Source: an uncultured Christensenellaceae bacterium
Lineage (GTDB): Bacteria; Bacillota; Clostridia; Christensenellales; Aristaeellaceae
Assembly: GCA_905234985.1 (NCBI GenBank)
Contig: CAJOJQ010000032.1
Coordinates: 9,915-73,914, forward strand
Direction of reading: 5' to 3'
DNA: 64,000 nucleotides
The translations under genes were made by a program, and so were the position numbers. Under the pieces are notes generated by a model. It was given only the letters and a program-made list of their open reading frames with translations, was not told where the DNA came from and made no database searches. Below are positions 3,378-64,000 of the stretch, one piece after another; positions within the stretch are counted from its first letter, which is position 1, and each line of letters opens with the position of its first letter.

Positions 3378-4030
3378 ACTTTTACCTCTTTCCAGCGCAC
3401 CGTTTCCATCTCCGGCGCGGCTTTCCGCAGGGCTTTTTTAGGGTTCACCTGCACTGGATGGCCGCACAGAAGCAGCATGGGCAGGTCGCTTTTGCTGTCG
3501 CCATAGGCAAAGGAGGCGGCAAAGTCCGCTTCCCGGCCCGTATCCCGCAGCCAGTCCCGGATGCGGCGGGGCTTTTCTTCCCCTTTGCAATTTTCGCCCA
3601 CGGTGCCGTCGGGGTTCAGGGGCGTGGCCAGCAGGGCGGAAAAGCCCAGCGCCTCCGCCGCAAAACGCATATAGTTTTCCGTGGAGGCGGTCACCAGCAC
3701 AGTTTCGCGGCCCGCCTGCCGGTGAAGGTCAAGGCAGGCTTTCCCCCGGGGATAGACCCGGGGCAGCAGACAGTCCCGCACAAAGTCCCGTTCCAGGGCT
3801 TCCCGATCCGCCGGGCTCAGCTTCATGCGAAAGCGCAGGGCGGCGTTTTTGCTGTCCGCCGCGTTTTTTACGCCCAGCACGAAGCCCGCCGCCGCCAGCA
3901 TTGTCCGCGCATATTCCTTCCGGGGCATGAATCCCCGTTTCCGGGCATAGCGCACAAAGGCGACGATGCTGTCCCCCGAAATCAGGGTGCCGTCAAAGTC
4001 AAAAAAAGCGAACGACTGCGTTTCTTTCAT
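3374..4030 (-). CDS. HAD-superfamily hydrolase, subfamily IB-like
   Basis: FDFDGTL motif I at the N-terminus and GDSxSDLPML motif IV. 4-nt ATGA overlap with xth. Confidence 0.8.
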   Translation of the reverse strand: MKETQSFAFFDFDGTLISGDSIVAFVRYARKRGFMPRKEYARTMLAAAGFVLGVKNAADSKNAALRFRMKLSPADREALERDFVRDCLLPRVYPRGKACLDLHRQAGRETVLVTASTENYMRFAAEALGFSALLATPLNPDGTVGENCKGEEKPRRIRDWLRDTGREADFAASFAYGDSKSDLPMLLLCGHPVQVNPKKALRKAAPEMETVRWKEVKV

Positions 4031-4110
4031 ACAGCGAAAACCTCTTTGCCGCTCGCCATTAACCCCATTGGGAAAAATGACGGAGTTGGGGATCGCAGGG
4101 GGATTGTTAA

Positions 4111-4436
4111 GGGGAGCGCCCCTTGACTGAAATCCGCACCGGCGGCGTGTACGCCGGGAGGACGGAAAATTTCAGGAAGGAGCGAAGACGACTGGATGAA
4201 ATTTTCCTGCCTTGCGGTTTTTCCGCCCGGGAGCCCTTAGCGTCGAGCGAAGCGAGACTGCGGGCGAGAGGAAAAACCGTAGGGGACGAACCGCCGATGA
4301 CCGCCTGCGGCGGGAATCTCATCGGCGGTGAGATCAGCCGAAAGGGAGCAATCTCCCCATGAAGGGGAGTTGCGACCTTTATTCCGTAAGGGGGAAGGAT
4401 TCCCCCTTACGCGCCATTCAGCGCAAGCTGAATGGC
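4111..4436 (+). ncRNA. Unclassified structured RNA of about 330 nt (copy A of a 4-member family in this window)
   Basis: No credible ORF. Nested hairpins. Alignable along its whole length to the reverse complement of 35545..35871 with compensatory stem changes (GGAAAAUUUC/GAAAUUUUCC vs GAAAAAUUUC/GAAAUUUUUC; CUCCCC/GGGGAG vs GUCCGC/GCGGAC). Confidence 0.5.
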
Positions 4437-4438
4437 AA

Positions 4439-7426
4439 TTACTTTGCCATAGCCTGGGTGATTTCCCAGCCCCAGTTGATTTCGTTCTGGTGGCTGACGG
4501 CGTAGGGGCCGGTGGCTTCCGCCTCGGACATTTTCCGGGGGAAGTGGAGGCAGATATGGCCTGCCAGGTCGTTATTGGGGGTATGGTCCACCTCATGGCC
4601 GTGGCTGTGGATGGAGCCGATATACACCTGCCCGTCGGGGAAGATGACCCACACATACTTGGGCGTCCAGTTGTTCACGCCCACGATCTGGTTCAGGATG
4701 GCGGTATCCGCCGCGGTGGGGGGTTCGGAATCGGCATGCTTGCCGAAGGAGAACATATGCAGGTTAAAGTGCAGGCCGGAGTCCGGATCGTAAATCACCA
4801 CGTCGGGCATGCTGCGGGCGATGGGGCGGATCACGCTCTCCCAGTTGGCGTACTTCACCCGGGAAGCGGCGGGGGCGGTAAAGGCCGTGCTGCCGCTGTT
4901 ATTCGTATTGGTATTCGTACCCGTATTGGTGCTGGGCAGACCCGCCACGCCGGAGGCGGGCACGGCGCTGCTGGAGCTGATGCGATTCAGGGTCATGGTA
5001 CCCGCGATGCCGTCGGAGGTCAGGCCGTTCTGCTTCTGGAAGGCCGCCACGGCGTTCACGGTCTTGGGTCCGTAAATGCCGTCCGCCGCGGTCAGGTAGC
5101 CCAGCTGCACCAGGCGCTGCTGCAAAGCCTTGACCGCCGCGCCGCTGTCGCCCCTTTGCAGGAGCTTGGCGTTGATCTTGACCGCCGTGGCGGCAGAGGT
5201 GGCGGAGGGCTTGGGCGTGGCCGTGGGCTTGGGGGTGGCGGCGGCAATCGCCGTGCCGCTGACGTACAGGCGGGTCAGGGTCTGAGAGCCTGCCACGCCG
5301 TCGGGGTTGAGGCCGTTGGCCCGCTGGAAGTTCTTCACCGCCTGGGCGGTGCCGCTGCCGTACTGGCCGTCCACGGTGCCGGTAAAGTAGCCCAGGGCTT
5401 TCAGCCGGGTTTGCAGGGCGGAGACCAGCTCGCCGCTGCTGCCGGTTTTCAGGGTCTGGTTCACGGGATAAGGCGTGCTGGCCACGATGGGCGTGGGCGA
5501 TACGGAGGCCACGGGCAGGGGCGTGAAGGCGGCCACGGCGGAGGCGGCGTACAGGGCCTGCTGGGTCGCCAGACCGGCCACGCCGTCCACGGAGAGGCCG
5601 TTCTTGCGCTGGAATTCCTTGACGGCTTCGATTTCGTCGCTGTCATATACGCCGTCGGCGCGGCAGTTGTAGTAGCCCAGCTCCATGAGCCGGTATTGCA
5701 GCTTGGTCACTTCCGTGCCCTTGGTGCCGTTCTTCATCACCACCACGTTCTTGGCCGTCAGGGGGGTGGAGGTGGCGGCGGGAACGACGGCGGCGGCCTT
5801 CGGGGAGGGCGTGGGGGTGACGGCCAGCAGGCTCAGCAGGCGCATGGTTTTTTTGCCCGCCACGCCGTCCACGGTCAGCTTATGGTCGGTCTGGAATTTC
5901 TTCACCGCGTTCTGGGTGGCGGCGTCGTACACGCCGGAGGGGGTGGCGGCGGTATAATAGCCCAGGGCTTTCAGGGTGTTTTGCAGCTCGGTCACCTGCC
6001 AGCCCTTATCGCCCACGCTGAATTCCTCCACGGCGTAATTGGGCAGGATGGCCACGCTGACCTTCTTGCCCCGGGCGTTCAGGGGCTTGCCCTCAAAAAT
6101 CAATTTCTGCACCTCGGGGGAAGCGACGCTGTCCTGCCGGATGCCGTTCTTCTTCTGGAACGCCTTCACAGCGGCGGCGGTGTTGGCCCCGTAGCTGCCG
6201 TCCGCCGCCCCGGCGTAAAACTCCAGCTCCCTTAAGGCTTCCTGGAGTACGGACACGTTTTTGCCCGTGCTGCCGGTTTGCAGATAGGCGTAATGCTGCT
6301 GGGCGTCGGCGTCGGTGGACAGCGCCTTGCCGGGGGCGTACTGGGCGGGCACGTGGGCATAATCGGCCACGATGTAGCCCGTATAGGATTTATATTTGAC
6401 GTTCAGGAAATCCCCGGTGATCGCCAGCACCGAAATTTCCGCGCCCTTGGGCACGGTGAGCAGGCGCTGGGAGGAGGTGGAGGCGGATTTCCGCAGGTTC
6501 ACGGAGGCGGTGGTGTAGGTGGTAAAGGGGAAGGTGGCCTTGCCTTCCGTGGGGGGATTGGTGGGAATGGTGGTGGGGGTGGCGGTGGGCTTGGGCGTGG
6601 CGGTGGCCTTGGCGCTGATGGCCGTGGCCGCGTACAGCGCCCTCTGGGTGGCCGCGTCCGCCGTGCCGGTCTGGGTCAGGCCGTTCTTTTTCTGGAACGC
6701 CTTGATGGCGCTCACCGTGGCGCTGCCCGCCGCGCCGTCCACCGTGCCGGTGTAATAGCCCAGCTCTTTCAGCCGGTTTTGCAGGCGCGTCACCGCGTCG
6801 CCCTTGCTGCCGGAGGAGATGGACGCGCCCTCCACGTAGGACACCGTTTTCACAGCGGCGGCCTTGCCCTTGCTGTTCTTGGGCTTTCCTTCAAACAGCA
6901 GGGTCTGGGTGGCGCTGTCCGCCGTGCCGGTCTGGGAAAGGCCGTTCATGCTCTGGAAGGCGGTCACAGCGCCGCGGGTGCCGGAGCCGAAGCTGCCGTC
7001 CACCGCGCCGGTATAAAAGCCTAATTCCTTCAGCGCTTCCTGCACGGCCTTCACCGCGTCCCCCTTGCTGCCGGAATAGAGCAGCTTATAGGCGGAGGAC
7101 GCTCCGGCGGCGGCGGCGGGGGTGGGGGTAATGGCGGGCACGTCGGCGTTTCCGCTGGACGTTTGCAGATACTGCTTCAAGGCGTAGCCCTGTACGCCCT
7201 CATAAACGGCGATATAATAGCCGCCGCTTTCTCCGGTGATCACCGCCATATCCCCGGCGGGGATGGTGGTAAGCACTTTCGCGGAGCTGCTGGGCGACTG
7301 GCGCAGGTTCAGCGCTTCGGTAACGTAGGCCGTGAAGGGATAAGTATCCCCCATCGCGGGCACGGCCCCCAGCAGCAAAGCGGCTGCGATCAGAAAAGCG
7401 CAAACGCGGACGGTAACGGTACGCAT
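4439..7426 (-). CDS. Secreted cell-wall protein: signal peptide, 2 SH3-like domains, 7 peptidoglycan-binding (PG_binding_1-type) repeats, and a C-terminal His-rich domain of unknown type
   Basis: Track ORF 4439..7507. Start moved to the ATG at 7426, preceded by GGAGG and followed by a hydrophobic signal sequence. Seven units match G(S/D)xGxxVxxLQxxLxxLGYYxG...DGxxG. Confidence 0.8.
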   Translation of the reverse strand: MRTVTVRVCAFLIAAALLLGAVPAMGDTYPFTAYVTEALNLRQSPSSSAKVLTTIPAGDMAVITGESGGYYIAVYEGVQGYALKQYLQTSSGNADVPAITPTPAAAAGASSAYKLLYSGSKGDAVKAVQEALKELGFYTGAVDGSFGSGTRGAVTAFQSMNGLSQTGTADSATQTLLFEGKPKNSKGKAAAVKTVSYVEGASISSGSKGDAVTRLQNRLKELGYYTGTVDGAAGSATVSAIKAFQKKNGLTQTGTADAATQRALYAATAISAKATATPKPTATPTTIPTNPPTEGKATFPFTTYTTASVNLRKSASTSSQRLLTVPKGAEISVLAITGDFLNVKYKSYTGYIVADYAHVPAQYAPGKALSTDADAQQHYAYLQTGSTGKNVSVLQEALRELEFYAGAADGSYGANTAAAVKAFQKKNGIRQDSVASPEVQKLIFEGKPLNARGKKVSVAILPNYAVEEFSVGDKGWQVTELQNTLKALGYYTAATPSGVYDAATQNAVKKFQTDHKLTVDGVAGKKTMRLLSLLAVTPTPSPKAAAVVPAATSTPLTAKNVVVMKNGTKGTEVTKLQYRLMELGYYNCRADGVYDSDEIEAVKEFQRKNGLSVDGVAGLATQQALYAASAVAAFTPLPVASVSPTPIVASTPYPVNQTLKTGSSGELVSALQTRLKALGYFTGTVDGQYGSGTAQAVKNFQRANGLNPDGVAGSQTLTRLYVSGTAIAAATPKPTATPKPSATSAATAVKINAKLLQRGDSGAAVKALQQRLVQLGYLTAADGIYGPKTVNAVAAFQKQNGLTSDGIAGTMTLNRISSSSAVPASGVAGLPSTNTGTNTNTNNSGSTAFTAPAASRVKYANWESVIRPIARSMPDVVIYDPDSGLHFNLHMFSFGKHADSEPPTAADTAILNQIVGVNNWTPKYVWVIFPDGQVYIGSIHSHGHEVDHTPNNDLAGHICLHFPRKMSEAEATGPYAVSHQNEINWGWEITQAMAK

Positions 7427-9930: not shown

Positions 9931-10054
9931 GCAGGTAGGAGGTAGGAAGTAGGAGGTAGGAGGTTTATTTTGCTCAAAAGTCCAAGCAAGGTGCCGGGTT
10001 CCTTTGGTAGACTATATAAAACTTCCTACCTCCTACCTCCTACTTCCTACCTGC
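9931..10054. repeat. Heptad-armed long hairpin element, GTAGGAG family (copy H1)
   Basis: Left arm gcaGGTAGGAGGTAGGAAGTAGGAGGTAGGAGGT; right arm is its near-complement. About 56-nt loop ending in GACTATATAAAA. Confidence 0.85.
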
Positions 10055-10086: not shown

Positions 10087-11382
10087 ATGGCAAAAAGCCG
10101 TTTTTCCTTGGGCGTTTTCGCCCTGCTTTTAGCGTTGGCGGCGGTGTCCGGGCTGGCGTTCCGGTTCAAGGGCGAGCGGGACGGGTACGCGGCGCGTCTG
10201 CGGGAGGTATACGACGGGACGGTGCTTTCGGCCCTTAGGCAGATGGAAGATATGGAATTGGCCTTAGGCAAGGCCTTGCTGTCCCAGGCCGACGGGGCGG
10301 AAAACCAATACCTGAATCAGGTGAGCGCCGGGGCGGCCCAGGTGCAGCGCAGTTTGTCCCTGCTGCCCCTGTCCCACACCGCCACCCAGCGGGCCATGAA
10401 GTTCGCCAATCAGGCGGCGGATTACAGCGGCGCGCTGCTCCGGGCGGGGGAAATCACCCCGGAGGACGCGGCGAAGCTGAACAGCCTCCTGTCCGCATGC
10501 CGGGAATACGCTTCCGCCCTTGCCCAGAGCCGGGAAAGCCTGACGGCCCAGGCCAGCGCGGGGACCGCCGCCTTTTATCCCGTGGGCAGCGAACCGGAAG
10601 CCCCGGCCTATGACAGCGCCGTGAGCTACCCCACCTTGATTTACGACGGGCCTTTTTCCGACGCCCGGCAGACCGGCCAGGCCCTGGCCTTGGGCACCAA
10701 GGTGATCTCCCAGGAGGAGGCTATGACCATCGCCCGGGATTTCGTGGGCGACCGGGTGAAGCGGGCCGCGCCGGGGGCGTCCACCGGCGGCAGCATCCCC
10801 TGCTGGGGCGTGACGCTGGATTTGGGCGACGTGACCCTCCAGGCCGCCGTGACCCGGCAGGGCGGCAAAATTCTGTGGATGGCCCCGGACGCGGCGGATT
10901 TCCCCGTGGAAAAGAGCGTGGAGGAATGCAGGGAAAACGCCCTGCTGTTCCTGGAAGCCCGGGGCTTTCAAAGCATGAAAGCCACCTACTTCCAGGTATA
11001 TCAGGGCGTTGCGGTGATTTCCTTCGCCGCCTCCCAGGGCGATACGCTGCTGTACCCCGATCTCATCAAGGTGCAGCTGCGCATGGACACCGCCCAGGTG
11101 GTGGGCGTCGAGGCCCGGAATTACTGGCAGAACCATGCCGCCCGGGGGCTGCTGGCCCCCACCCTCACCGAGGAGGAGGCGAGAAGCCGCGTGGGCCAGC
11201 GCTTGAACGTGCAGTCCGGTCAGCTGTGCCTGATCCCCACGGAAAGCGGCGAAAGGCTGTGCTACGAGTTCAAGGGCGAGTTCGGCGGCCACACCTATCT
11301 GAGCTACATCAGCGCCCTGGACGGAAAACAGGAGGAGCTGTTAAAAGTGGTGGAAAGCGATACGGGGCTGGAAACAGTGTAA
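10087..11382 (+). CDS. ypeB: Germination protein YpeB (PepSY domains)
   Basis: Directly follows sleB. N-terminal TM segment. ATG at 10087 preceded by GAGGTG. Length and position are typical of YpeB. Confidence 0.82.
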   Translation: MAKSRFSLGVFALLLALAAVSGLAFRFKGERDGYAARLREVYDGTVLSALRQMEDMELALGKALLSQADGAENQYLNQVSAGAAQVQRSLSLLPLSHTATQRAMKFANQAADYSGALLRAGEITPEDAAKLNSLLSACREYASALAQSRESLTAQASAGTAAFYPVGSEPEAPAYDSAVSYPTLIYDGPFSDARQTGQALALGTKVISQEEAMTIARDFVGDRVKRAAPGASTGGSIPCWGVTLDLGDVTLQAAVTRQGGKILWMAPDAADFPVEKSVEECRENALLFLEARGFQSMKATYFQVYQGVAVISFAASQGDTLLYPDLIKVQLRMDTAQVVGVEARNYWQNHAARGLLAPTLTEEEARSRVGQRLNVQSGQLCLIPTESGERLCYEFKGEFGGHTYLSYISALDGKQEELLKVVESDTGLETV

Positions 11383-14956: not shown

Positions 14957-15066
14957 CAGGTAGGAAGTAGGAGGTAGGAGGTAGGAAGTATATATAGTCC
15001 ATAAAGAGATGAACCCATGCTTCTTGATGAACATGATAAAACCTCCTACTTCCTGCCTCCTACCTG
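14957..15066. repeat. Heptad-armed long hairpin element, GTAGGAG family (copy H2; loop inverted relative to H1)
   Basis: Arms cAGGTAGGAAGTAGGAGGTAGGAGGTAGGAAGT / ACCTCCTACTTCCTGCCTCCTACCTG. Loop begins with TATATATAGTCC, the reverse complement of the shared motif. Confidence 0.85.
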
Positions 15067-15774: not shown

Positions 15775-15883
15775 GGTTCTTACCTCCTTTCCCGAGCATG
15801 GCCCCATGATAGACGCGGAACCTTAGACGAGTCTTAAGAAACGAACAAATTTGAAATATTTTTGGTTCAACGAAAAAGTGAAT

Positions 15884-15924
15884 GGGGGAAACCGCTCTTT
15901 GGATGCCAAAGAACGGTTTCCCCC
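15884..15924. repeat. REP-like hairpin GGGGGAAACCNNTCTTTGG / CCAAAGANNGGTTTCCCCC (full copy)
   Basis: 19-bp arms and a 3-nt loop. A second full copy lies at 45317..45357 with similar flanks in the opposite orientation. Confidence 0.8.
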
Positions 15925-15965
15925 ACACCCCTTTCCGAGAAAGCAACAAAGGAATCCGTTAAAAA

Positions 15966-16043
15966 AGAGTTCAGCGTTCAGATGATATAGCCAACTTGAC
16001 GGACTATATTCATCTCAACGCTCAACTATCCACTCTGAACTTT
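15966..16043. repeat. Heptad-armed hairpin element, GAGTTGA family (degenerate copy H3)
   Basis: Arms AGAGTTCAGCGTTCAGATGA / TCATCTCAACGCTCAACTATCCACTCTGAACT. Loop contains GGACTATATTC. Confidence 0.6.
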
Positions 16044-22246: not shown

Positions 22247-23215
22247 TCACGCGATACCCAATTCCTTGCAAAGTTTTTCCCTGTATTCAGGATCGTTGGC
22301 GGCTTTTTCCAAATCTTTTGCCCGTCCCAGGGAAAGCAGCCTGGAAATCAGCGTGGACATTTTGCTTTCACCTTCCGCTCTGCCTTCCACTTTGCCCTCC
22401 GCTCTTCCTTCCGCTCTTCCTTCCGCTCTTCCTTCCGCTCTTCCTTCCGCTCTTCCTTCCGCTCTGCTTTCCCGCCGGATTTGCGCGTCGTGATTTCTCA
22501 TGACGGTTTCATCGTCAAACAACAGCATCATAAGGCTTGTTACCTCCTCTATTCCTTTGGTCAGCAAATAATTTTTCAGGGCGTTATGCTCCACGCAGTA
22601 GTGATATGTTGCCCGCATCGCCTCCGGTGCGTAGCCATATTTCTGAATGTTCTGATCCAGCGTGTGGGCAAACGTCATATACTGGTCGATGATGTCCCCT
22701 TCTTTTCCTTGCTGCACGATTTTAGCGGTGATCTCCACATCGGGCGTATCGCCCGGAAAGAACTCCCTGGCAAAGGACAGCTGTTCAGGCCGTTCTCCCT
22801 TTCCCGTATATATCACGAAAAATTCCGGCTTGGGCAGGGATACGCGCTTCTCGCTGTACACGTCCAGCTCGTGGGCGGTGATGTAGTTTTTGTAGGTGTA
22901 CGCCAGATAGATCAGGATGCGGATCAGGATGTTCACGGACCAGGTGGATTGCGCTTCCACCAGGATCACGAATTTATCCCGCGCCAGAATGCCCAGGTCG
23001 TTATAGGACTTGTTGGTCAGGATATTTCTGATCGTTACGGTGGAAATATCATCCTCCGTGTAATCCGAAAGCTCCGGGTGGAGGGCTTTCAGCAATTCCA
23101 GGCCGTAAGCGGGCGTGCCGAATACCTCCGTGAAAATGGACGCCTTTGCTTCGCGTTTGGCGGTCATACCATCGCCGTTGTTCATCAGCTCGATGAACCG
23201 TTCCTCGTGCTGCAT
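22247..23215 (-). CDS. Rpn-family (YhgA-like, PD-(D/E)XK) recombination-promoting nuclease / putative transposase
   Basis: Start moved to the ATG at 23215 behind GGGGGGTGGA. The family assignment rests on the overall look of the N-terminal region plus the C-terminal (AEGR)n low-complexity tail that I recall as typical of this family. No catalytic residues were identified. Confidence 0.65.
   Translation of the reverse strand: MQHEERFIELMNNGDGMTAKREAKASIFTEVFGTPAYGLELLKALHPELSDYTEDDISTVTIRNILTNKSYNDLGILARDKFVILVEAQSTWSVNILIRILIYLAYTYKNYITAHELDVYSEKRVSLPKPEFFVIYTGKGERPEQLSFAREFFPGDTPDVEITAKIVQQGKEGDIIDQYMTFAHTLDQNIQKYGYAPEAMRATYHYCVEHNALKNYLLTKGIEEVTSLMMLLFDDETVMRNHDAQIRRESRAEGRAEGRAEGRAEGRAEGRAEGKVEGRAEGESKMSTLISRLLSLGRAKDLEKAANDPEYREKLCKELGIA
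22371..22472. repeat. 12-bp tandem repeat (CCTTCCGCTCTT)n encoding (AEGR)n
   Basis: About 8 consecutive near-identical units inside the Rpn-like CDS. Confidence 0.85.
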
Positions 23216-45255: not shown

Positions 45256-45316
45256 TTCAATACGTCTCTCCATGAGGAAATTGCCTTTCCTTTACGGCTT
45301 TCTTGGATGGGGGTCT

Positions 45317-45357
45317 GGGGGAAACCATTCTTTGGCCCCCAAAGAATGGTTTCCCCC
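45317..45357. repeat. REP-like hairpin GGGGGAAACCATTCTTTGG / CCAAAGAATGGTTTCCCCC (full copy)
   Basis: 19-bp perfect arms and a 3-nt loop, just downstream of the dnaA stop. Confidence 0.8.
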
Positions 45358-45366
45358 AGAAAAATC

Positions 45367-47150: not shown

Positions 47151-47352
47151 AAAAATGTGTTCTTATTGATGCGGGGTACGTTGGGGGCGCTCCGCCCCCA
47201 AGCCCCCGACCAGGGGCGTGACGCCCCTGGACCCTCGCTTGCGGAAATATCTTGATGCTTTTGTACAAGTTATTTCGCCAGGTGTGGGTCCAGGGAGGTC
47301 ACCTCCCTGAGCGTCTTCCCCTTGCTTTTTTCGTCAGCAGCCTCCGTCCGGG

Positions 47353-49040: not shown

Positions 49041-49190
49041 AAAAGGCGCTTGAAGTCAGAGTTGAGAGCGGAGAGTTGAGAGTTGAGATGATATAGTGTT
49101 TCAAGAGAATCCTGTTTGATCGACTATATAAAATCTCAACTCTTCACTCTCAACGCTCAACTCTTTCGCTGACTGAAAGCGCCCCTTTTC
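49041..49190. repeat. Heptad-armed long hairpin element, GAGTTGA family (copy H4)
   Basis: AAAAGGCGCT..CAGAGTTGAGAGCGGAGAGTTGAGAGTTGAGAT / ATCTCAACTCTTCACTCTCAACGCTCAACTCT..AGCGCCCCTTTT. Loop carries GACTATATAAAA. Confidence 0.85.
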
Positions 49191-49212
49191 AATACTCTGG
49201 TTAAACAATGCT

Positions 49213-49989
49213 ATGAAAAAGGGATTTACAGAATTTCTGCGCTCCCTCCTGCCCCGCATGACGGCGCTGCCGGGGGAAATCAGCGTATACGGCAAGGATC
49301 TAAAAACCGATGAAAAATGGGCGTATCAGGCGGACATTTCCCTGGTGGCGGCAAGCGTGATCAAGCTGCCCATCTTGGTGGAAGCGTTTCGTCAGGCCCG
49401 GGACGGCCTGGTTTCCATGGACGAAAGCGTGTCCATTCGCCCGGAGCAGAAAATGCCCTCCTGCGGGGCGCTGACCTACCTGCACGACGGGCTGACCGTC
49501 ACCCTGCGGGACCTGTGTGTACTCATGATGATTGTCAGCGACAACACCGCCACTAATATCCTGATCCAGCGGCTGGGCATGGAAAACGTAAACGCCGGGA
49601 TGCGCAAATTGGGCCTTCAAAAATCCACCCTGCGCCGCCTGCTGTTCGATTCCGAGGCGTCTGCAAGGGGCCTGGAAAACACCGTCACGGCCTGGGAAAT
49701 GGGCCAATTGCTGGAAATGCTGTACAAGGGCGAATGCGTGTCTCCCGAGGCCGACGCGGAGATGCTGAGTATCCTTCGGGATCAGCGGCTCAACGGCAAA
49801 ATGCCCTTCTTCCTCCACAATCTAAAAATCGCCCACAAAACCGGCGAGGACGACGGCATCACCCATGACGTGGGCATTGTGTACGCCGACCATCCCCTAA
49901 TCCTGTGCTTCGCCTCCAACCATACCGACGTGCCCGCCTTTGAGCGCTTCATTCAGGACGCGGCGCGGGACTTTATTCAGTGGATATGA
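49213..49989 (+). CDS. Class A beta-lactamase-like serine hydrolase
   Basis: SVIK (SxxK), SDN and KTG motifs in canonical order. Confidence 0.78.
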   Translation: MKKGFTEFLRSLLPRMTALPGEISVYGKDLKTDEKWAYQADISLVAASVIKLPILVEAFRQARDGLVSMDESVSIRPEQKMPSCGALTYLHDGLTVTLRDLCVLMMIVSDNTATNILIQRLGMENVNAGMRKLGLQKSTLRRLLFDSEASARGLENTVTAWEMGQLLEMLYKGECVSPEADAEMLSILRDQRLNGKMPFFLHNLKIAHKTGEDDGITHDVGIVYADHPLILCFASNHTDVPAFERFIQDAARDFIQWI

Positions 49990-49998
49990 CATGCTATT

Positions 49999-50116
49999 AA
50001 GGTAGGAGGTAGGAAGTAGGAGGTTTATTTTGTGGAAACAAATACACAAAATTGGACTTGGTTCATTTTGGAGGACTATATAAAACCTCCTACTTCCTAC
50101 CTTCTACCTCCTACCT
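49999..50116. repeat. Heptad-armed long hairpin element, GTAGGAG family (copy H5)
   Basis: AAGGTAGGAGGTAGGAAGTAGGAGGT / ACCTCCTACTTCCTACCTTCTACCTCCTACCT. Loop is similar to H1 and ends in GGACTATATAAAA. Confidence 0.85.
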
Positions 50117-50152
50117 CTCCAAATTCCAATTAGTAAATCTTAGTGGTGTGAT

Positions 50153-50569
50153 ATGATTTTATTTGTATGTACGGGCAACACCTGCCGGAGTCCCATGGCC
50201 TGCGCCCTGGCACGGGCCGCCGGGGTGGACGCCCAATCCGCCGGGCTGCACGCCTTTCCCGGCGCGCCCGCCTCGCCCAAGGCCATTCGCGCCGCCAAGC
50301 TGTACGGGGCCGATCTCACGGGCCATAAGGCGCGCATGCTGGATGAAAGCATGCTGCGGGACGCGGAGGAAGTGTGGGTCATGACCGAGGCCCACGAAGC
50401 GATGCTGAACATGATGTTTCCCCAATACTCCCGCAAAATCAGCGTGCTTTGGCCCCCCATCCCCGACCCCTACGGCGGCGATGACAGGGACTATGAGAAG
50501 TGCGCTAAGAGGTTGATGGAAGCGATGCAAAGGGCGGGAATACTGCCGAAAGACAGAGTTGAGAGTTAA
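50153..50569 (+). CDS. Low-molecular-weight protein tyrosine/arginine phosphatase
   Basis: VCTGNTCRSPMA (CX5R-S) P-loop at the N-terminus. DPYG motif. Confidence 0.85.
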   Translation: MILFVCTGNTCRSPMACALARAAGVDAQSAGLHAFPGAPASPKAIRAAKLYGADLTGHKARMLDESMLRDAEEVWVMTEAHEAMLNMMFPQYSRKISVLWPPIPDPYGGDDRDYEKCAKRLMEAMQRAGILPKDRVES

Positions 50570-50655
50570 GAGTTGAGAGTTGAGATTTATATGGCCGGAA
50601 TATCCAGAATCTGCAATGTGCGGACCGCAATATCTCAACTCTCCGCTCTCAACTC
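50555..50655. repeat. Heptad-armed long hairpin element, GAGTTGA family (copy H6, loop inverted)
   Basis: AGAGTTGAGAGTTAAGAGTTGAGAGTTGAGAT / ATCTCAACTCTCCGCTCTCAACTC. The left arm overlaps the last 5 codons and the stop of the phosphatase gene. Confidence 0.8.
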
Positions 50656-50711: not shown

Positions 50712-52214
50712 TTAGTCCTCCCTGGCTTCCTGTTCCGCCTGAATTTCGGGGAAAGCGGAATACATGGGTTCCAGGTCGGGCTGTTTTTTGGTGATCTTGC
50801 GGTCGGAGTAGTTCTTGGTGATCCTCACCACCAGGCCGCTCAAGCACACCACGCCGATCAGGTTGGGGATGGCCATGAGGCCGTTGAAGGTATCGGAGAG
50901 GTCGATAGCCAGGGACACGTCGATGATCGCGCCCACAGCGACCATGGCGATGAAAGCGATTTTATAGGCCAGGGTGGATTTGGTGCCGAAGAGGTATTCC
51001 CAGGCCTTGGTGCCGTAGTAGCTCCAGCCTAAGATGGTGGTGAAGGCGAACAGGCACACGGCTACGGACAGGAACACGCCGCCGAAGGTGCCGAAGGTCT
51101 TGGTAAAGGCTTCCGTCGCCAGACCTAACTTGGTCGCGCCGGAGAGGGACGCGCCGGTTTCCATGTCCACCACGCCGGAGGTGAGGATCACCAGGGCGGT
51201 GCAGGTACACACGATGATGGTATCAGCGAACACTTCAAAGATGCCCCACAGGCCCTGCACCACCGGCTCCTTCACGTTGGAGGCGGAGTGTACCATGACG
51301 GAGGAGCCGAGGCCCGCTTCGTTGGAGAACACGCCGCGCTTGAAGCCCCAGGTCATGGCCTGGGCGATGATGGCGCCGCCCACGCCGCCGGCGGCGGACT
51401 TGAAGTTGAACGCGCCCGCGAAAATCGCGCCGAAAGCGGCGGGCACCTTGGCGATGTTCAGGATGATGATGATCAGGGAGCCAATGACGAAGAACACGGC
51501 CATGAAGGGCACGATGCGCTCGTTGGTGGTGGCGATGCGCTTGAGGCCGCCCAAGATCACCAGGGACGCCAGCACGATGATCACCAGGGCGGTGAACAGG
51601 TTCACGGTGGTGGGTTCCACGGGGATCAGGGTGTTGATGCTCTCGGTGATGGAAACCACCTGGCCCATGTTGCCGATGCCGAAGGAGGCGATGACGGCAA
51701 AGAATGAGAACAGGGCCGCCAGTACCGTGCCGGCCGCCTTGCCGTACTTCATCTTGCCCACGCCGTCTTTCAGGTAGTACATGGCGCCGCCGCTCCATTC
51801 GCCTTTTTCGTTCCGGCGGCGGAAGAAGATGCCCAGCACGTTTTCGGAATAGTTGGTCATCATGCCCACGATGGCGGCGATCCACATCCAGAACACGGCG
51901 CCGGGGCCGCCCATGGTGATGGCGTAGGCCACGCCCGCGATGTTGCCCGTGCCGATGGTGGCGGACAGGGCGGTGCATAGGGACTGGAACTGGGAAATGG
52001 AATGCTTATCCTTGCTTTGGGTAATGCTCTTGTTGCTGAACAGGCCGCCGATGGTGTTTTTCCACATGTGGCCAAAGCGCCGGAACTGGAAGAATTTCGT
52101 CAGTACCGTCATCAGCACGCCGGTGCCGATGAGCAGAACCAGGGCGGGTACGCCCCATACGATGCCGTTTACCGCGTCGTTGACCGATGCGATGTTCTGG
52201 GTGATGCTGTCCAT
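50712..52214 (-). CDS. Alanine/glycine:cation symporter (AGCS family)
   Basis: ATG at 52214. ...FxSxxTALSATIGTGNIAGVAxAIxxGGPGAxFWMW.... Confidence 0.88.
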   Translation of the reverse strand: MDSITQNIASVNDAVNGIVWGVPALVLLIGTGVLMTVLTKFFQFRRFGHMWKNTIGGLFSNKSITQSKDKHSISQFQSLCTALSATIGTGNIAGVAYAITMGGPGAVFWMWIAAIVGMMTNYSENVLGIFFRRRNEKGEWSGGAMYYLKDGVGKMKYGKAAGTVLAALFSFFAVIASFGIGNMGQVVSITESINTLIPVEPTTVNLFTALVIIVLASLVILGGLKRIATTNERIVPFMAVFFVIGSLIIIILNIAKVPAAFGAIFAGAFNFKSAAGGVGGAIIAQAMTWGFKRGVFSNEAGLGSSVMVHSASNVKEPVVQGLWGIFEVFADTIIVCTCTALVILTSGVVDMETGASLSGATKLGLATEAFTKTFGTFGGVFLSVAVCLFAFTTILGWSYYGTKAWEYLFGTKSTLAYKIAFIAMVAVGAIIDVSLAIDLSDTFNGLMAIPNLIGVVCLSGLVVRITKNYSDRKITKKQPDLEPMYSAFPEIQAEQEARED

Positions 52215-52322
52215 GATGCACGATCCTTTCCAAATGAGAATAAAAAGAAGAGCCCGCCGAAGCAAAGCTCCCTCAAACCAATGCGACAAAACGATTTCGA
52301 TCCAAAACGGAAAGGATCGTCG

Positions 52323-52488
52323 CCTCTGTCCTTTTGCCTGAGAGATTAGCCCTTTTCGGGCTTTGCACCTTCGGCCCCCGGTCTTTCTCCGGGCTTCTCC
52401 AGAGTGTCATCCGCATACAGTCCCGCCGCCCTTGGCAGCGCCTGAGAGTGTTGCTCCTTCGGCTATCCTTTGGGATATTTCCTGCATG
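52323..52488 (-). ncRNA. Tandem glycine riboswitch
   Basis: Minus strand, aptamer I: CAUGCAG-GAAA-UAUCC..GGAUA-GCCGAAGGAGCAAC-ACUCUCAGGC..GGGACUGUAUG. Aptamer II: CUCUGGAGA..GCCGAAGGUGCAA..CUCUCAGGCAAAAGGACAGAG. Upstream of an AGCS transporter gene. Confidence 0.8.
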
Positions 52489-58506: not shown

Positions 58507-58544
<38 letters not shown>

Positions 58545-59566: not shown

Positions 59567-59655
59567 AGAGTGGAGAGTTGAGAGTGGAGAGTTGAGATTA
59601 ATAGCGGAATATCAGACAAAATCAATCTCAACTCTCAACTCTCAACTCTCAACTC
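59567..59655. repeat. Heptad-armed hairpin element, GAGTTGA family (copy H7, short loop)
   Basis: AGAGTGGAGAGTTGAGAGTGGAGAGTTGAGAT / ATCTCAACTCTCAACTCTCAACTCTCAACTC with a 26-nt loop. Confidence 0.85.
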
Positions 59656-62485: not shown

Positions 62486-64000
62486 ATGAAAAACAACCGT
62501 TTATTGAGTTTGATCCTCTCTCTTATGATGCTGTTCACCGTCGTTTTCCCCACCGGCGTGTACGCTGAGGAGCCGGAAGGACAGGAAATCGTCGCCGAAG
62601 CGCAGCCTGCTGCCCCGGAAGCGAAGCCCGCTGCTGAAGAGCAGCCTGCTGCCGAGGAACAGCCCGCTGCTCAGGAGCAGCCCGCCGCTCAGGAACAGCC
62701 CGCCGCTCAGGAGCAGCCCGCCGCCCAGGAGCAGCCCGCCGCCCAGGAGCAGCCCGCCGACGAAGAACAGCCCGCCGCTCAAGAGCAGCCCGCTGCTGAA
62801 GAGCAGCCTGCTGACGAAGAACAGCCCGCTGACGAACAGCAGCCCGCTGACGAACAGCAGCCCGCTGACGAACAGCAGCCCGCTGACGAAGAACAGCCCG
62901 CTGACGAAGAGCAGCCCGCTGATGAAGAACAGCCCGCTGACGAAGAGGCGGAAGAAGAACCCGCGCTTTTTGAACGCGGCTATGTCCGCATGGCGAACGG
63001 CGCGACCACCGTTTACGCTTCCGAATCCAGGCGCGATGAACTGGGCACGCTGGCCGGCGGCTCCGTGGTGTACGCCGTGGTTTCTTCCCGCGCGGCCGAC
63101 GAAGCGGATACCTGGCTGAGGATCGTCTTTGACACCAAGGAAGCCAGGGAAGCGGACGGCGCGCTGGTGAGCGGCTATGTGCAGTTCAAGAGCGTTTCCG
63201 TGCTGTCCGAGGAAGCGGTCGCCCAGCTGCAGCAGTCCCTGAAAAACGATCACGCGGTCCGCAGCTATGGCGACAATCCGCTGCCTGCGGTTTCCTTCAC
63301 TCTGAAAGTGGAAGAAGCTGTTGAACAGCAGCCCGCTGACGAAGAGCAGCCCGCTGACGAACAGCAGCCCGCTGACGAAGAACAGCCCGCTGACGAACAG
63401 CAGCCCGCCGACGAACAGCAGCCCGCTGACGAACAGCAGCCTGCTGACGAAGAGCAGCCCGCCAACGAAGAACAGCCCGCTGACGAACAGCAGCCCGCTG
63501 CTGAAGAGCAGCCCGCTGACGAACAGCAGCCCGCTGCTGAAGAGCAGCCCGCTGACGAACAGCAGCCCGCTGACGAACAGCAGCCCGTCGACGAAGAAGA
63601 ACCCGACGATGATGAAGACGAAGACGACGACGGAGAACCGACCATTGTGATTGGCGCGCTGGAAGGAGAAACGGTAACGGATGATCCGATGGGTTCTCCC
63701 GCCGCTAAGCCCCAATTCACTATCCAGCCGGAAGCCACTATGGTCGAATTAGGCGCAGAAGTCACTTTCACCGCCGCCGCGTCCGACGCTACCAGCTATC
63801 AGTGGCAGATCGACAAGAACAACGGCAAGGGCTGGACCAAGCTGAGCAACGGCACCACCTGGCGGATCGCCGTCACCGACGAAGGAACAACGACTCTTGC
63901 CTTTGACTCGACCGCTGCCAGAGCGACCTACAAATACCGCTGCGTTGCCACCAATTCAAACGGCAGCACCGGCTCCGACGAAGCGACCTTCACCATTGGC
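62486..64000 (+). CDS. Secreted repeat protein: two (E/Q)EQPA(D/A/E) hexapeptide arrays, an SH3-like module, then Ig-like domain(s); 3' partial
   Basis: AAGGAG-N7-ATG. Signal peptide MKNNRLLSLILSLMMLFTVVFPTGVYA. The frame is open to the window end, so it is absent from the ORF track. Confidence 0.75.
   Translation, partial: MKNNRLLSLILSLMMLFTVVFPTGVYAEEPEGQEIVAEAQPAAPEAKPAAEEQPAAEEQPAAQEQPAAQEQPAAQEQPAAQEQPAAQEQPADEEQPAAQEQPAAEEQPADEEQPADEQQPADEQQPADEQQPADEEQPADEEQPADEEQPADEEAEEEPALFERGYVRMANGATTVYASESRRDELGTLAGGSVVYAVVSSRAADEADTWLRIVFDTKEAREADGALVSGYVQFKSVSVLSEEAVAQLQQSLKNDHAVRSYGDNPLPAVSFTLKVEEAVEQQPADEEQPADEQQPADEEQPADEQQPADEQQPADEQQPADEEQPANEEQPADEQQPAAEEQPADEQQPAAEEQPADEQQPADEQQPVDEEEPDDDEDEDDDGEPTIVIGALEGETVTDDPMGSPAAKPQFTIQPEATMVELGAEVTFTAAASDATSYQWQIDKNNGKGWTKLSNGTTWRIAVTDEGTTTLAFDSTAARATYKYRCVATNSNGSTGSDEATFTIG
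62600..62946. repeat. 18-bp tandem repeat array 1 (GAA/CAG CAG CCC GCT GAC GAA type)
   Basis: About 19 consecutive units read directly. Confidence 0.85.
63323..63594. repeat. 18-bp tandem repeat array 2
   Basis: About 15 consecutive units of the same type. Confidence 0.85.

Follow-up and report, generated by a model that had tools for sequence, protein, structure and literature searches.

We uncovered, in a 64-kb stretch (56.5% G+C; hereinafter the window) of contig CAJOJQ010000032.1 from an uncultured Christensenellaceae bacterium, seven hairpin-forming elements, H1-H7, that are probably copies of an interspersed, non-autonomous palindromic repeat, specific to one lineage and armed with microsatellites, which is similar to the REP and Correia elements and belongs to a clade of uncultured rumen and gut Clostridia. 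They are dispersed as whole elements, are present, absent or replaced at orthologous sites, are restricted to a clade, vary in the number of their tandem units and undergo compensatory changes that run en bloc through both arms of the hairpin, which is predicted to be extremely stable. In their behavior they are REP- and Correia-like, but they display the defining features of neither family.

We propose that the unit, made up of outer arms of three to five purine-rich tandem heptads with their complement, an inner A/T-rich palindrome and a fast-diverging apex, would be copied as a whole to new places, landing 0-36 nt past stop codons. Its arms would then behave as paired microsatellites that gain and lose whole heptads, and homogenization of the two arms against each other would allow the stem to survive a heptad change in every unit.

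Seven heptad-armed palindromes with a shared inner motif

An earlier note, made from the letters of the window alone, had placed seven heptad-armed hairpins in it; all of these were found at the coordinates that it gave, with a pattern search, the Tandem Repeats Finder program and folding statistics in agreement. The elements are 80-150 bp each, and their arms (23-38 nt, 82-97% complementary) are purine-rich heptads that pair with their own complement. In family 1 the heptad is GTAGGAR (units GGTAGGA/AGTAGGA) and in family 2 it is GTTGAGA/GTGGAGA (units GAGTTGA/GAGTGGA/GAGCGGA); the units of both fit GTWGRRR. Three tandem copies of this consensus, with at most two mismatches, match the window 23 times, always within six of the elements, against an expectation of 0.07, and a looser search of the window with three GTNNRRR units yielded zero sites beyond those already known. 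Tandem Repeats Finder likewise reports period-7 arrays of 3.6-5 copies at every arm. A common motif, GACTATAT(A/T)NA, is present in six of the seven elements; when searched as GRCYATATWNA, it has six matches in the window, all inside elements, against 0.43 expected. The claim that this is a true repeat family, of two arm types with a shared, enriched motif, is thereby borne out. The predicted RNA folds of six elements lie between -43 and -75 kcal/mol (z -5.7 to -9.9), that of the degenerate H3 is at -32.7 kcal/mol (z -5.0), and for all seven none of the shuffled sequences folds as stably as its element. The elements are as follows:

H1, 9931-10054, + strand: family 1 (GTAGGAR arms), motif GACTATATAAA at 10010-10020; -75.1 kcal/mol, z -9.9; 8 nt past the stop of the upstream + strand gene and ~30 nt ahead of the next start.
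H2, 14957-15066, - strand: family 1, motif on the - strand at 14989-14999; -53.6 kcal/mol; flanked by - strand genes on both sides and oriented relative to them as H1 is to its own neighbors.
H3, 15966-16043, + strand: degenerate family-2/GTTCAG-type copy (left arm of the GTTCAG type), inner palindrome ATATAGCC/GGACTATAT intact, motif at 16002-16012; -32.7 kcal/mol; T6 follows on the - strand.
H4, 49041-49190, + strand: family 2, GTTGAGA/GCGGAGA arms at 49058-49089 and 49133-49164, inner palindrome GATATAGT/GACTATAT, motif at 49122-49132; -70.2 kcal/mol; nested in an outer GC-rich stem (GGCGCTT..AGTCAG/CTGACT..AAGCGCC) that is followed by CCCTTTT.
H5, 49999-50116, + strand: family 1, arms at 50000-50026 and 50083-50116, motif at 50074-50084; -58.9 kcal/mol.
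H6, 50555-50655, - strand: family 2, inverted relative to H4, degenerate motif at 50586-50596 (-).
H7, 59567-59655, strand unassigned: family 2 (GTGGAGA/GTTGAGA against TCTCAAC), no motif; -52.4 kcal/mol; between argS and dapF (both - strand), 35 nt past the argS stop and ~8 nt ahead of the dapF ribosome-binding site.

In every element the purine arm is the 5′ side, on either strand. The flipping of loop orientation between copies, to which the earlier note drew attention, is hence trivial: a palindrome with a purine 5′ arm reads alike on both strands, and the flips are simply the orientation of the element. What that note called a loop motif is the 3′ half of the inner A/T-rich palindrome, with the conserved form GACTATATAAAA. 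In H3 and H4, ATATAGT beside the 5′ arm pairs with GACTATAT (ACTATAT); in family 1 the 5′ half has degenerated to GGTTTATTTTG and the 3′ half, GACTATATAAAAC, is kept. The motif of H6 is degenerate (GGCCATATAAA), and its ortholog in the related locus L125 has GACTATATAAA and retains the inner palindrome TTTATATAGTC...GTACTAT. The apex is far less conserved than the arms and the 3′ motif, among paralogs as well as among orthologs. Of the ~50-nt alignment proposed for the family-1 loops, both ends hold up and the middle is variable.

Similarities between sites extend to idiosyncratic details. In both H4 and H6, the arm farther from the motif has the same asymmetric variant unit, GCGG, and the 5′ arm of H4 is 100% complementary to the 3′ arm of H6 over 23 nt. 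H1, H5 and a copy from another Clostridia metagenome-assembled genome (L028) have in common the unit order GGTAGGA-GGTAGGA-AGTAGGA-GG and the loop ends. Thus, variant units in a shared order, a common arm asymmetry and common loop ends indicate that whole elements, and not the heptads alone, are homologous. These same details bear on a local origin, wherein each hairpin would have formed in place by heptad slippage and template-switch inverted duplication, with no copying between sites. Heptamers are, per Mrazek 2007 as cited in PMC4679880 and PMC4692102, an over-represented class of long simple sequence repeats (SSRs) in bacteria, heptad arrays and hairpins of many sequences occur across many phyla, and orthologs of our elements differ in unit number, all as such an origin would have it. 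However, slippage acting independently at each site would not give dispersed copies the same motif, the same 10-20 nt loop ends, the same asymmetric mismatches and variant units in the same order, as is seen here; hence, we disfavor a local origin as highly improbable.

Gain, loss and concerted change at orthologous sites

Orthologous loci from ruminant and pig gut metagenomes were reached via homologs of the serine hydrolase encoded between H4 and H5 and of DapF, encoded beside H7, a look-up of the exact protein sequence of the window's own hydrolase having matched no record; the proteins flanking the orthologous gaps are 87-98% identical. The sites compare as follows:

H4 site, mgtE/hydrolase: present in the window and L121; absent from L129, where the genes overlap (ATGA), and from the outgroups L133 and L135 (gap of 1-50 nt); replaced in L125 and L132 by an unrelated ~420-nt GC-rich mosaic element, with the 3′ flank unchanged.
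H5 site, hydrolase/phosphatase: present in the window and L129-L131; empty in L121 (TAATGCTATG); replaced in L125 and L132 by the 420-nt element, which lies between the same flanks.
H6 site: ortholog in L125; absent where the phosphatase ends in ...PPAG(K/N)IF* (L121, L129).
H7 site, argS/dapF: present in the window (four units), with orthologs in L146, L126 and L129; absent from L149 and L153 (gaps of 48-55 nt).
dapF/aminotransferase site: a fourth heptad type, GTGRAAA, at -56 kcal/mol in L129; a plain palindrome, GGGGGAAACCGCTCTTTGG/CCAAAGAGCGGTTTCCCCC, in L146 and L126.

About 64 kb of outgroup loci contained no heptad hairpin, against seven in the 64-kb window and one to three per locus of the close relatives. 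Taken together, the patterns of presence, absence and replacement and the empty outgroups indicate that the elements are restricted to a clade, are gained and lost, and are interchangeable with other palindromic elements.

Where an element is retained, its arms change by whole units. The 5′ arm of H5 has 3.4 units in the window and 4.4 in L129-L131, i.e., one extra heptad; the H7 ortholog of L146, whose DapF is 98% identical, has three units and a shorter loop, and in that of L126 the 5′ arm has decayed (-24 kcal/mol). The H7 ortholog of L129 presents the most striking case: its arms are GAGTTCA x4 against TCTGAAC/TCTGTAC, such that, relative to the window, each unit carries a G-to-C change and each partner unit the complementary C-to-G change. 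The switch from GAGTTGA/TCAACTC to GAGTTCA/TGAACTC thus took in all units of both arms with pairing kept, and the alternating-mismatch pattern of the window and the loop end CAAATCAATCT were preserved. Hence, the orthologous sites indicate that the elements evolve through slippage of whole units and through changes that the two arms undergo in concert.

Two further repeat families were noticed at or near these sites. One, of ~380-450 nt, has no Rfam match and is a mosaic, rich in G+C, of short hairpins whose loops are UUCG- or GNRA-like (GGCCTTCGGCC, CCGGATGCAAAGCATCCGG, GGGGTGAAACCCC); in L125 and L132 it fills precisely the H4 and H5 gaps. Its copies lie at L132:9581-10000 and 10745-11213, L125:1663-2043, 3763-4120 and 4973-5409, L127:1724-2108 and L129:5275-5718, with a partial copy in the window at 47185-47309. 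The other, a third palindrome family, GGGGGAAACCG(C/T)TCTTTGG / CCAAAGA(A/G)CGGTTTCCCCC, forms as many as 22 perfect base pairs around a loop of 3 nt and occurs past gene ends, with no T-run after it, at window 15880-15925 and 45314-45360, at L146:7860-7905 and in L126 (dapF 3′ end), and L129 carries a heptad hairpin at the corresponding dapF site.

Position relative to genes and possible effects on transcripts

From the preceding stop codon to each element there are 0-36 nt, and from its end to the next start 10-60 nt; most of the elements lie in short gaps within strings of co-directional genes, where hairpins of -50 to -75 kcal/mol now separate genes that formerly overlapped or were tightly coupled. 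The description of all copies as intergenic is right for six of them; the left arm of H6 (50555-50569) encodes the last five codons and the stop of a low-molecular-weight phosphotyrosine phosphatase gene, an overlap of 17 nt. The C-terminus of this phosphatase is ...ILPKDRVES* in the window and L125; in L121 and L129 it is ...ILPPAG(K/N)IF*, and the gene that comes next is another one. As both the ending of the phosphatase and the following gene differ with and without H6, the element marks a synteny breakpoint.

The elements do not resemble intrinsic (Rho-independent) terminators, in which a short GC-rich stem is directly followed by a U-tract: T-runs are seen only at H3 (T6, - strand) and the outer stem of H4 (TTTT), and a terminator scan found nothing at the elements. 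They could nonetheless be selected cis-acting RNAs that punctuate operons as RNase III sites, mRNA 3′-end stabilizers or U-tract-independent terminators, with the motif as the recognition site of a protein or RNase. Such a role would account for arms and 3′ motif that outlast the apex, a stem kept through complete heptad replacement, a constant location directly past stop codons, and the occupation of matching 3′-end positions in relatives by other hairpin elements, as if any strong hairpin serves; further, the TAG and TGA within GTAGGAR and GTTGAGA provide stops in each of the three frames, entered from either side. However, the elements are absent from the orthologous gaps of equally close relatives and of all outgroups, where the genes overlap or lie 1-55 nt apart, the L126 copy has decayed, five of the seven elements have no U-tract, GTTCAGA and GTGGAGA units have no stop codons, and the orientation of the motif relative to the flanking genes (4/5) is not significant. 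A selected role of this kind is therefore rather unlikely.

The elements could also be promoter carriers in the manner of the Correia elements, which create promoters at their own ends (PMC2649163): the TATAAA of the motif, a 5/6 match to TATAAT, would act as an outward -10 box restoring downstream transcription after insertion, and the motif does point to the downstream gene in H1, H2, H4 and H5. Yet H3 and H6 are oriented the opposite way, H7 and the L028 and L129 elements have no motif, there is no conserved -35 box at 16-18 nt, and a promoter scan was negative at the motif, leaving this explanation with a very slim chance.

We favor instead the view that any effects on mRNA are incidental to a dispersed repeat. 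If they form part of operon transcripts, the stems, of 25-37 bp, would act as substrates for RNase III and barriers to 3′-exonucleases, uncoupling neighboring cistrons, and this would be a side effect and not the reason for the existence of the elements. The Correia hairpins offer a precedent for RNase III cleavage, as well as for IHF binding and promoter effects (PMC2649163).

Among other RNA features of the window, a glycine riboswitch aptamer (52316-52412, - strand; 55.8 bits) lies upstream of a gene for a Na+/alanine-family symporter (50712-52289, - strand) and is conserved in L121, L125 and L126.

Several other functional assignments were considered and set aside. The Shine-Dalgarno and anti-Shine-Dalgarno sequences to which the earlier note pointed are found in the arms of family 1 but not in GTTGAGA, GTTCAGA and GTGRAAA arms, which have no AGGAGG, and sequestration of ribosome-binding sites consequently fits just one of four heptad types. 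Binding of the heptads by CsrA (via GGA) or by cold-shock proteins (an idea in PMC4679880) would not be general across arm types. Mini-genes in the loop are suggested by AGGAGG + 7 nt + ATG/TTG in H1, H2 and H5, but neither frames nor stops agree from copy to copy. Finally, GTTGAGA resembles the GTTRRRY of integron attC sites, but the order of the cores is reversed (GTTRRR first, YYYAAC second) and no integrase is present.

Relationship to known repeat families

Searches with Rfam of the window and the elements returned only the glycine riboswitch above the gathering threshold and no family for the elements; their sub-threshold matches are to generic miRNA-precursor hairpin models, with one to let-7 reflecting a chance GAGGUAG. 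[quoted passage not shown] The impression that the architecture is undescribed is to that extent upheld; on the other hand, intergenic heptamer repeats, including inverted pairs, are documented: apart from the general heptamer excess, they include GGGAATC in Xanthomonas (with inverted pairs), GGGGA(C/T)T in Nostoc, the STRR of Calothrix and TAACTGA in Beggiatoaceae (PMC4692102, PMC4679880).

The elements share with these heptanucleotide repeats intergenic 7-nt tandem units (at least three), a length that varies among relatives, as in the H5 5′ arm (3.4 versus 4.4 units) and H7 (four versus three), and the arrangement, occasional in those repeats, as inverted pairs that can form stem-loops (PMC4692102, PMC4679880). 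However, those are described mainly as direct arrays that lack a conserved core, whereas here each array pairs into a hairpin that encloses a conserved inner palindrome, and it is complete units that form the dispersed repeat. Like MITEs, the elements are non-coding, have terminal inverted repeats and, at 80-150 bp, fall in the range of 50-500 bp, and they show insertion polymorphism at orthologous sites. With the Correia/NEMIS elements (CREE) of Neisseria they have in common an intergenic palindrome of ~100-150 bp, inverted arms of ~26 bp or more, a conserved core and polymorphic insertion, which in Correia is seen between strains, and Correia elements give long hairpins when transcribed, as ours would (PMC2649163); but Correia arms are of unique sequence, insertion duplicates a TA target and the hosts are of another phylum, whereas here the arms consist of heptads in tandem, one inner motif goes with several arm sequences and no duplication is seen. 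The pneumococcal BOX, RUP and SPRITE and the enterobacterial ERIC/RU are also small, non-coding, mobile-like intergenic hairpin repeats that affect mRNA (PMC2229807, PMC10969869), but they have no sequence relationship to our elements, no heptad periodicity and other hosts.

The REP/BIME/REPIN elements are likewise dense extragenic palindromes just past genes, with several palindrome families that coexist and replace one another at sites, and our elements too are extragenic and dispersed in many copies (seven per 64 kb and further copies in relatives), with a RAYT-like gene in the clade and GTAG in one arm type. In contrast, a REP is a 20-40 nt imperfect hairpin with a single GTAG at its 5′ foot, and a REPIN is a doublet of these; here the arms are heptad arrays, and GTAG is confined to the GTAGGAR type. 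The elements might even so be REPIN-like and mobilized by a RAYT, a Y1 HUH transposase that would read the 5′ GTAG of the folded single-stranded hairpin and cleave at CT, both of which REP/RAYT biology needs (PMC3479197). Indeed, the close relative L132 encodes a 254-aa Y1 protein that matches PF01797 and scores 76.1 bits, against a cut-off of 80, with the NCBIfam model REP_Tyr_transpos (the only RAYT-like gene so scored), and such genes are widespread, apparently in single copy, in Oscillospiraceae/Clostridia; family-1 heptads contain GTAG and their partners CT, and the invariably 5′ purine arm matches the rule of a 5′ GTAG at the hairpin foot (PMC3479197).

Yet the RAYT-like genes (~250 aa products with a C-terminal helix-turn-helix-like tail; L132:2990-3754, L156:6001-6756, L158:2194-2964) have no heptad arms near them in any of three genomic contexts (L132, L156/L157, L158), so none is a cognate RAYT flanked by its repeats. 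The absence of a RAYT from the window, claimed earlier, was corroborated by a homolog search, which covers 64 kb of this genome and also found none in the other fetched loci. Moreover, the arms are unlike the small imperfect palindromes of REPs, and GTTGAGA, GTTCAGA and GTGRAAA arms, three of the four heptad types, have no GTAG. The RAYT-like genes are bordered instead by a GAACCGT/ACGGTTC motif (L156, L158) resembling the third palindrome family, which, from its sequence, may be the REP of this enzyme. The RAYT lead offered by the GTAG tetranucleotide thus loses its footing, and we regard RAYT-driven mobilization as very unlikely. The RAYT-like genes have a conserved promoter of their own (TTGACAG...GATAAAAT), and many of the closest homologs are on contigs of only ~0.9-3 kb.

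Certain observations do weigh against a dispersed mobile repeat. RAYT-like genes aside, no transposase was found, no arm pair encloses a gene among the fetched loci, and thus no autonomous parent element with the same ends was seen. Target-site duplications are also wanting: there is no flanking direct repeat at H1, H2, H5 and L028, and none in the comparison of filled and empty H4, H5 and H7 sites. The copies in the window are old, with loop middles only ~50-60% alike, and they demonstrate no recent transposition. The conservation of arms and motif over the apex could reflect a selected function rather than homogenization, and the genome-wide copy number is an extrapolation from ~160 kb of sequence.

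Wider distribution and a polarity of heptad hairpins

That the elements are not confined to this region follows from orthologous and additional copies, found in relatives and metagenomes and on a single IMG/VR contig. A search combining motif and arm pattern recovered four more family-1 copies in metagenomes, three chance matches and the IMG/VR copy. The last, at L145:4070-4190 (UViG_3300031853_003048, classed as viral), is a family-1 element with the motif, and its 5′ arm has a GC hairpin (GCGGCCTCCGGCCGC) nested in it. The motif is carried by six of 11 independent elements found without its use; it is missing from H7 with its orthologs, from L028 and from the two extra elements of L129.

When 185,579 species genomes were scanned for four GTWGRRR units + GT (30 nt), at least 120 loci came up, which are not a census of this family. 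Among the matches listed are heptad arrays such as GTAGGGA, GTTGAGA, GTTGAAA and GTTGGGA, often as hairpins, from many phyla, including Cyanobacteria, Bacteroidota, Verrucomicrobiota, Planctomycetota, Acidobacteriota and Gemmatimonadota, and also from Clostridia; GTAGGGA/GTTGGGA arrays and hairpins were thus recovered in Nostoc, Rivularia, Moorena and others. For 100 arms among these listed matches that have at least 300 nt on either side, a complementary partner within 250 nt is found downstream in 18 cases and upstream in none; given that the search pattern fixes the heptad class, this 18:0 polarity pertains to GTWGRRR only. The paired cases, all 18 with the purine arm 5′, come from Cyanobacteria, Bacteroidota, Verrucomicrobiota, Gemmatimonadota, Selenomonadaceae and Clostridia.

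It is conceivable, though quite unlikely in our estimate, that heptad-array hairpins are a cross-phylum class of fixed polarity, of which the Clostridia elements are one example in a good state of preservation, perhaps made or maintained by a dedicated mechanism acting on single-stranded hairpins. One candidate is an enzyme of the Y1/HUH type that would recognize GT(A/T)G on the 5′ arm; another is the templated addition of repeats to DNA ends, which would then be joined head to head. Were there such a class, conversion between the arms would explain the en-bloc compensatory heptad switches.

A separate observation concerns L037 (Chitinophagaceae), in which the sequence that separates a GTTGGAG array from a CTACTCA array is conserved between two copies; dispersed heptad-bearing repeats hence exist in Bacteroidota too.

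Other repeats in the window

The window contains several tandem repeats of other periods: a 12-nt repeat, CCTTCCGCTCTT x7.9, at 22371-22465, which on the - strand reads (RAEG)n within a small open reading frame; a perfect (TGTC)9 microsatellite at 58507-58543, in the gap downstream of dapF; and, at 62597-63636, two long arrays of an 18-nt (six-codon) repeat, with ~15-18 copies each and 87-88% matches, apparently within a coding region at the 3′ end of the window.

Implications

If our interpretation as a dispersed palindromic repeat is correct, these elements would be a structurally distinct member of the small palindromic repeats of bacteria, in which the stems are themselves microsatellites. 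A stem built of heptads tolerates slippage, as its pairing can re-register by 7 nt, and both arms can change in concert; the elements would therefore offer an unusually clean natural case of concerted, structure-preserving evolution. They probably also fragment metagenome assemblies of this clade. If the 18:0 polarity holds, it would suggest that a shared mechanism underlies the surplus of bacterial heptamer repeats, long noted but unexplained. Of these results, the polarity rule across phyla and the en-bloc compensatory switch of the arms most merit attention.

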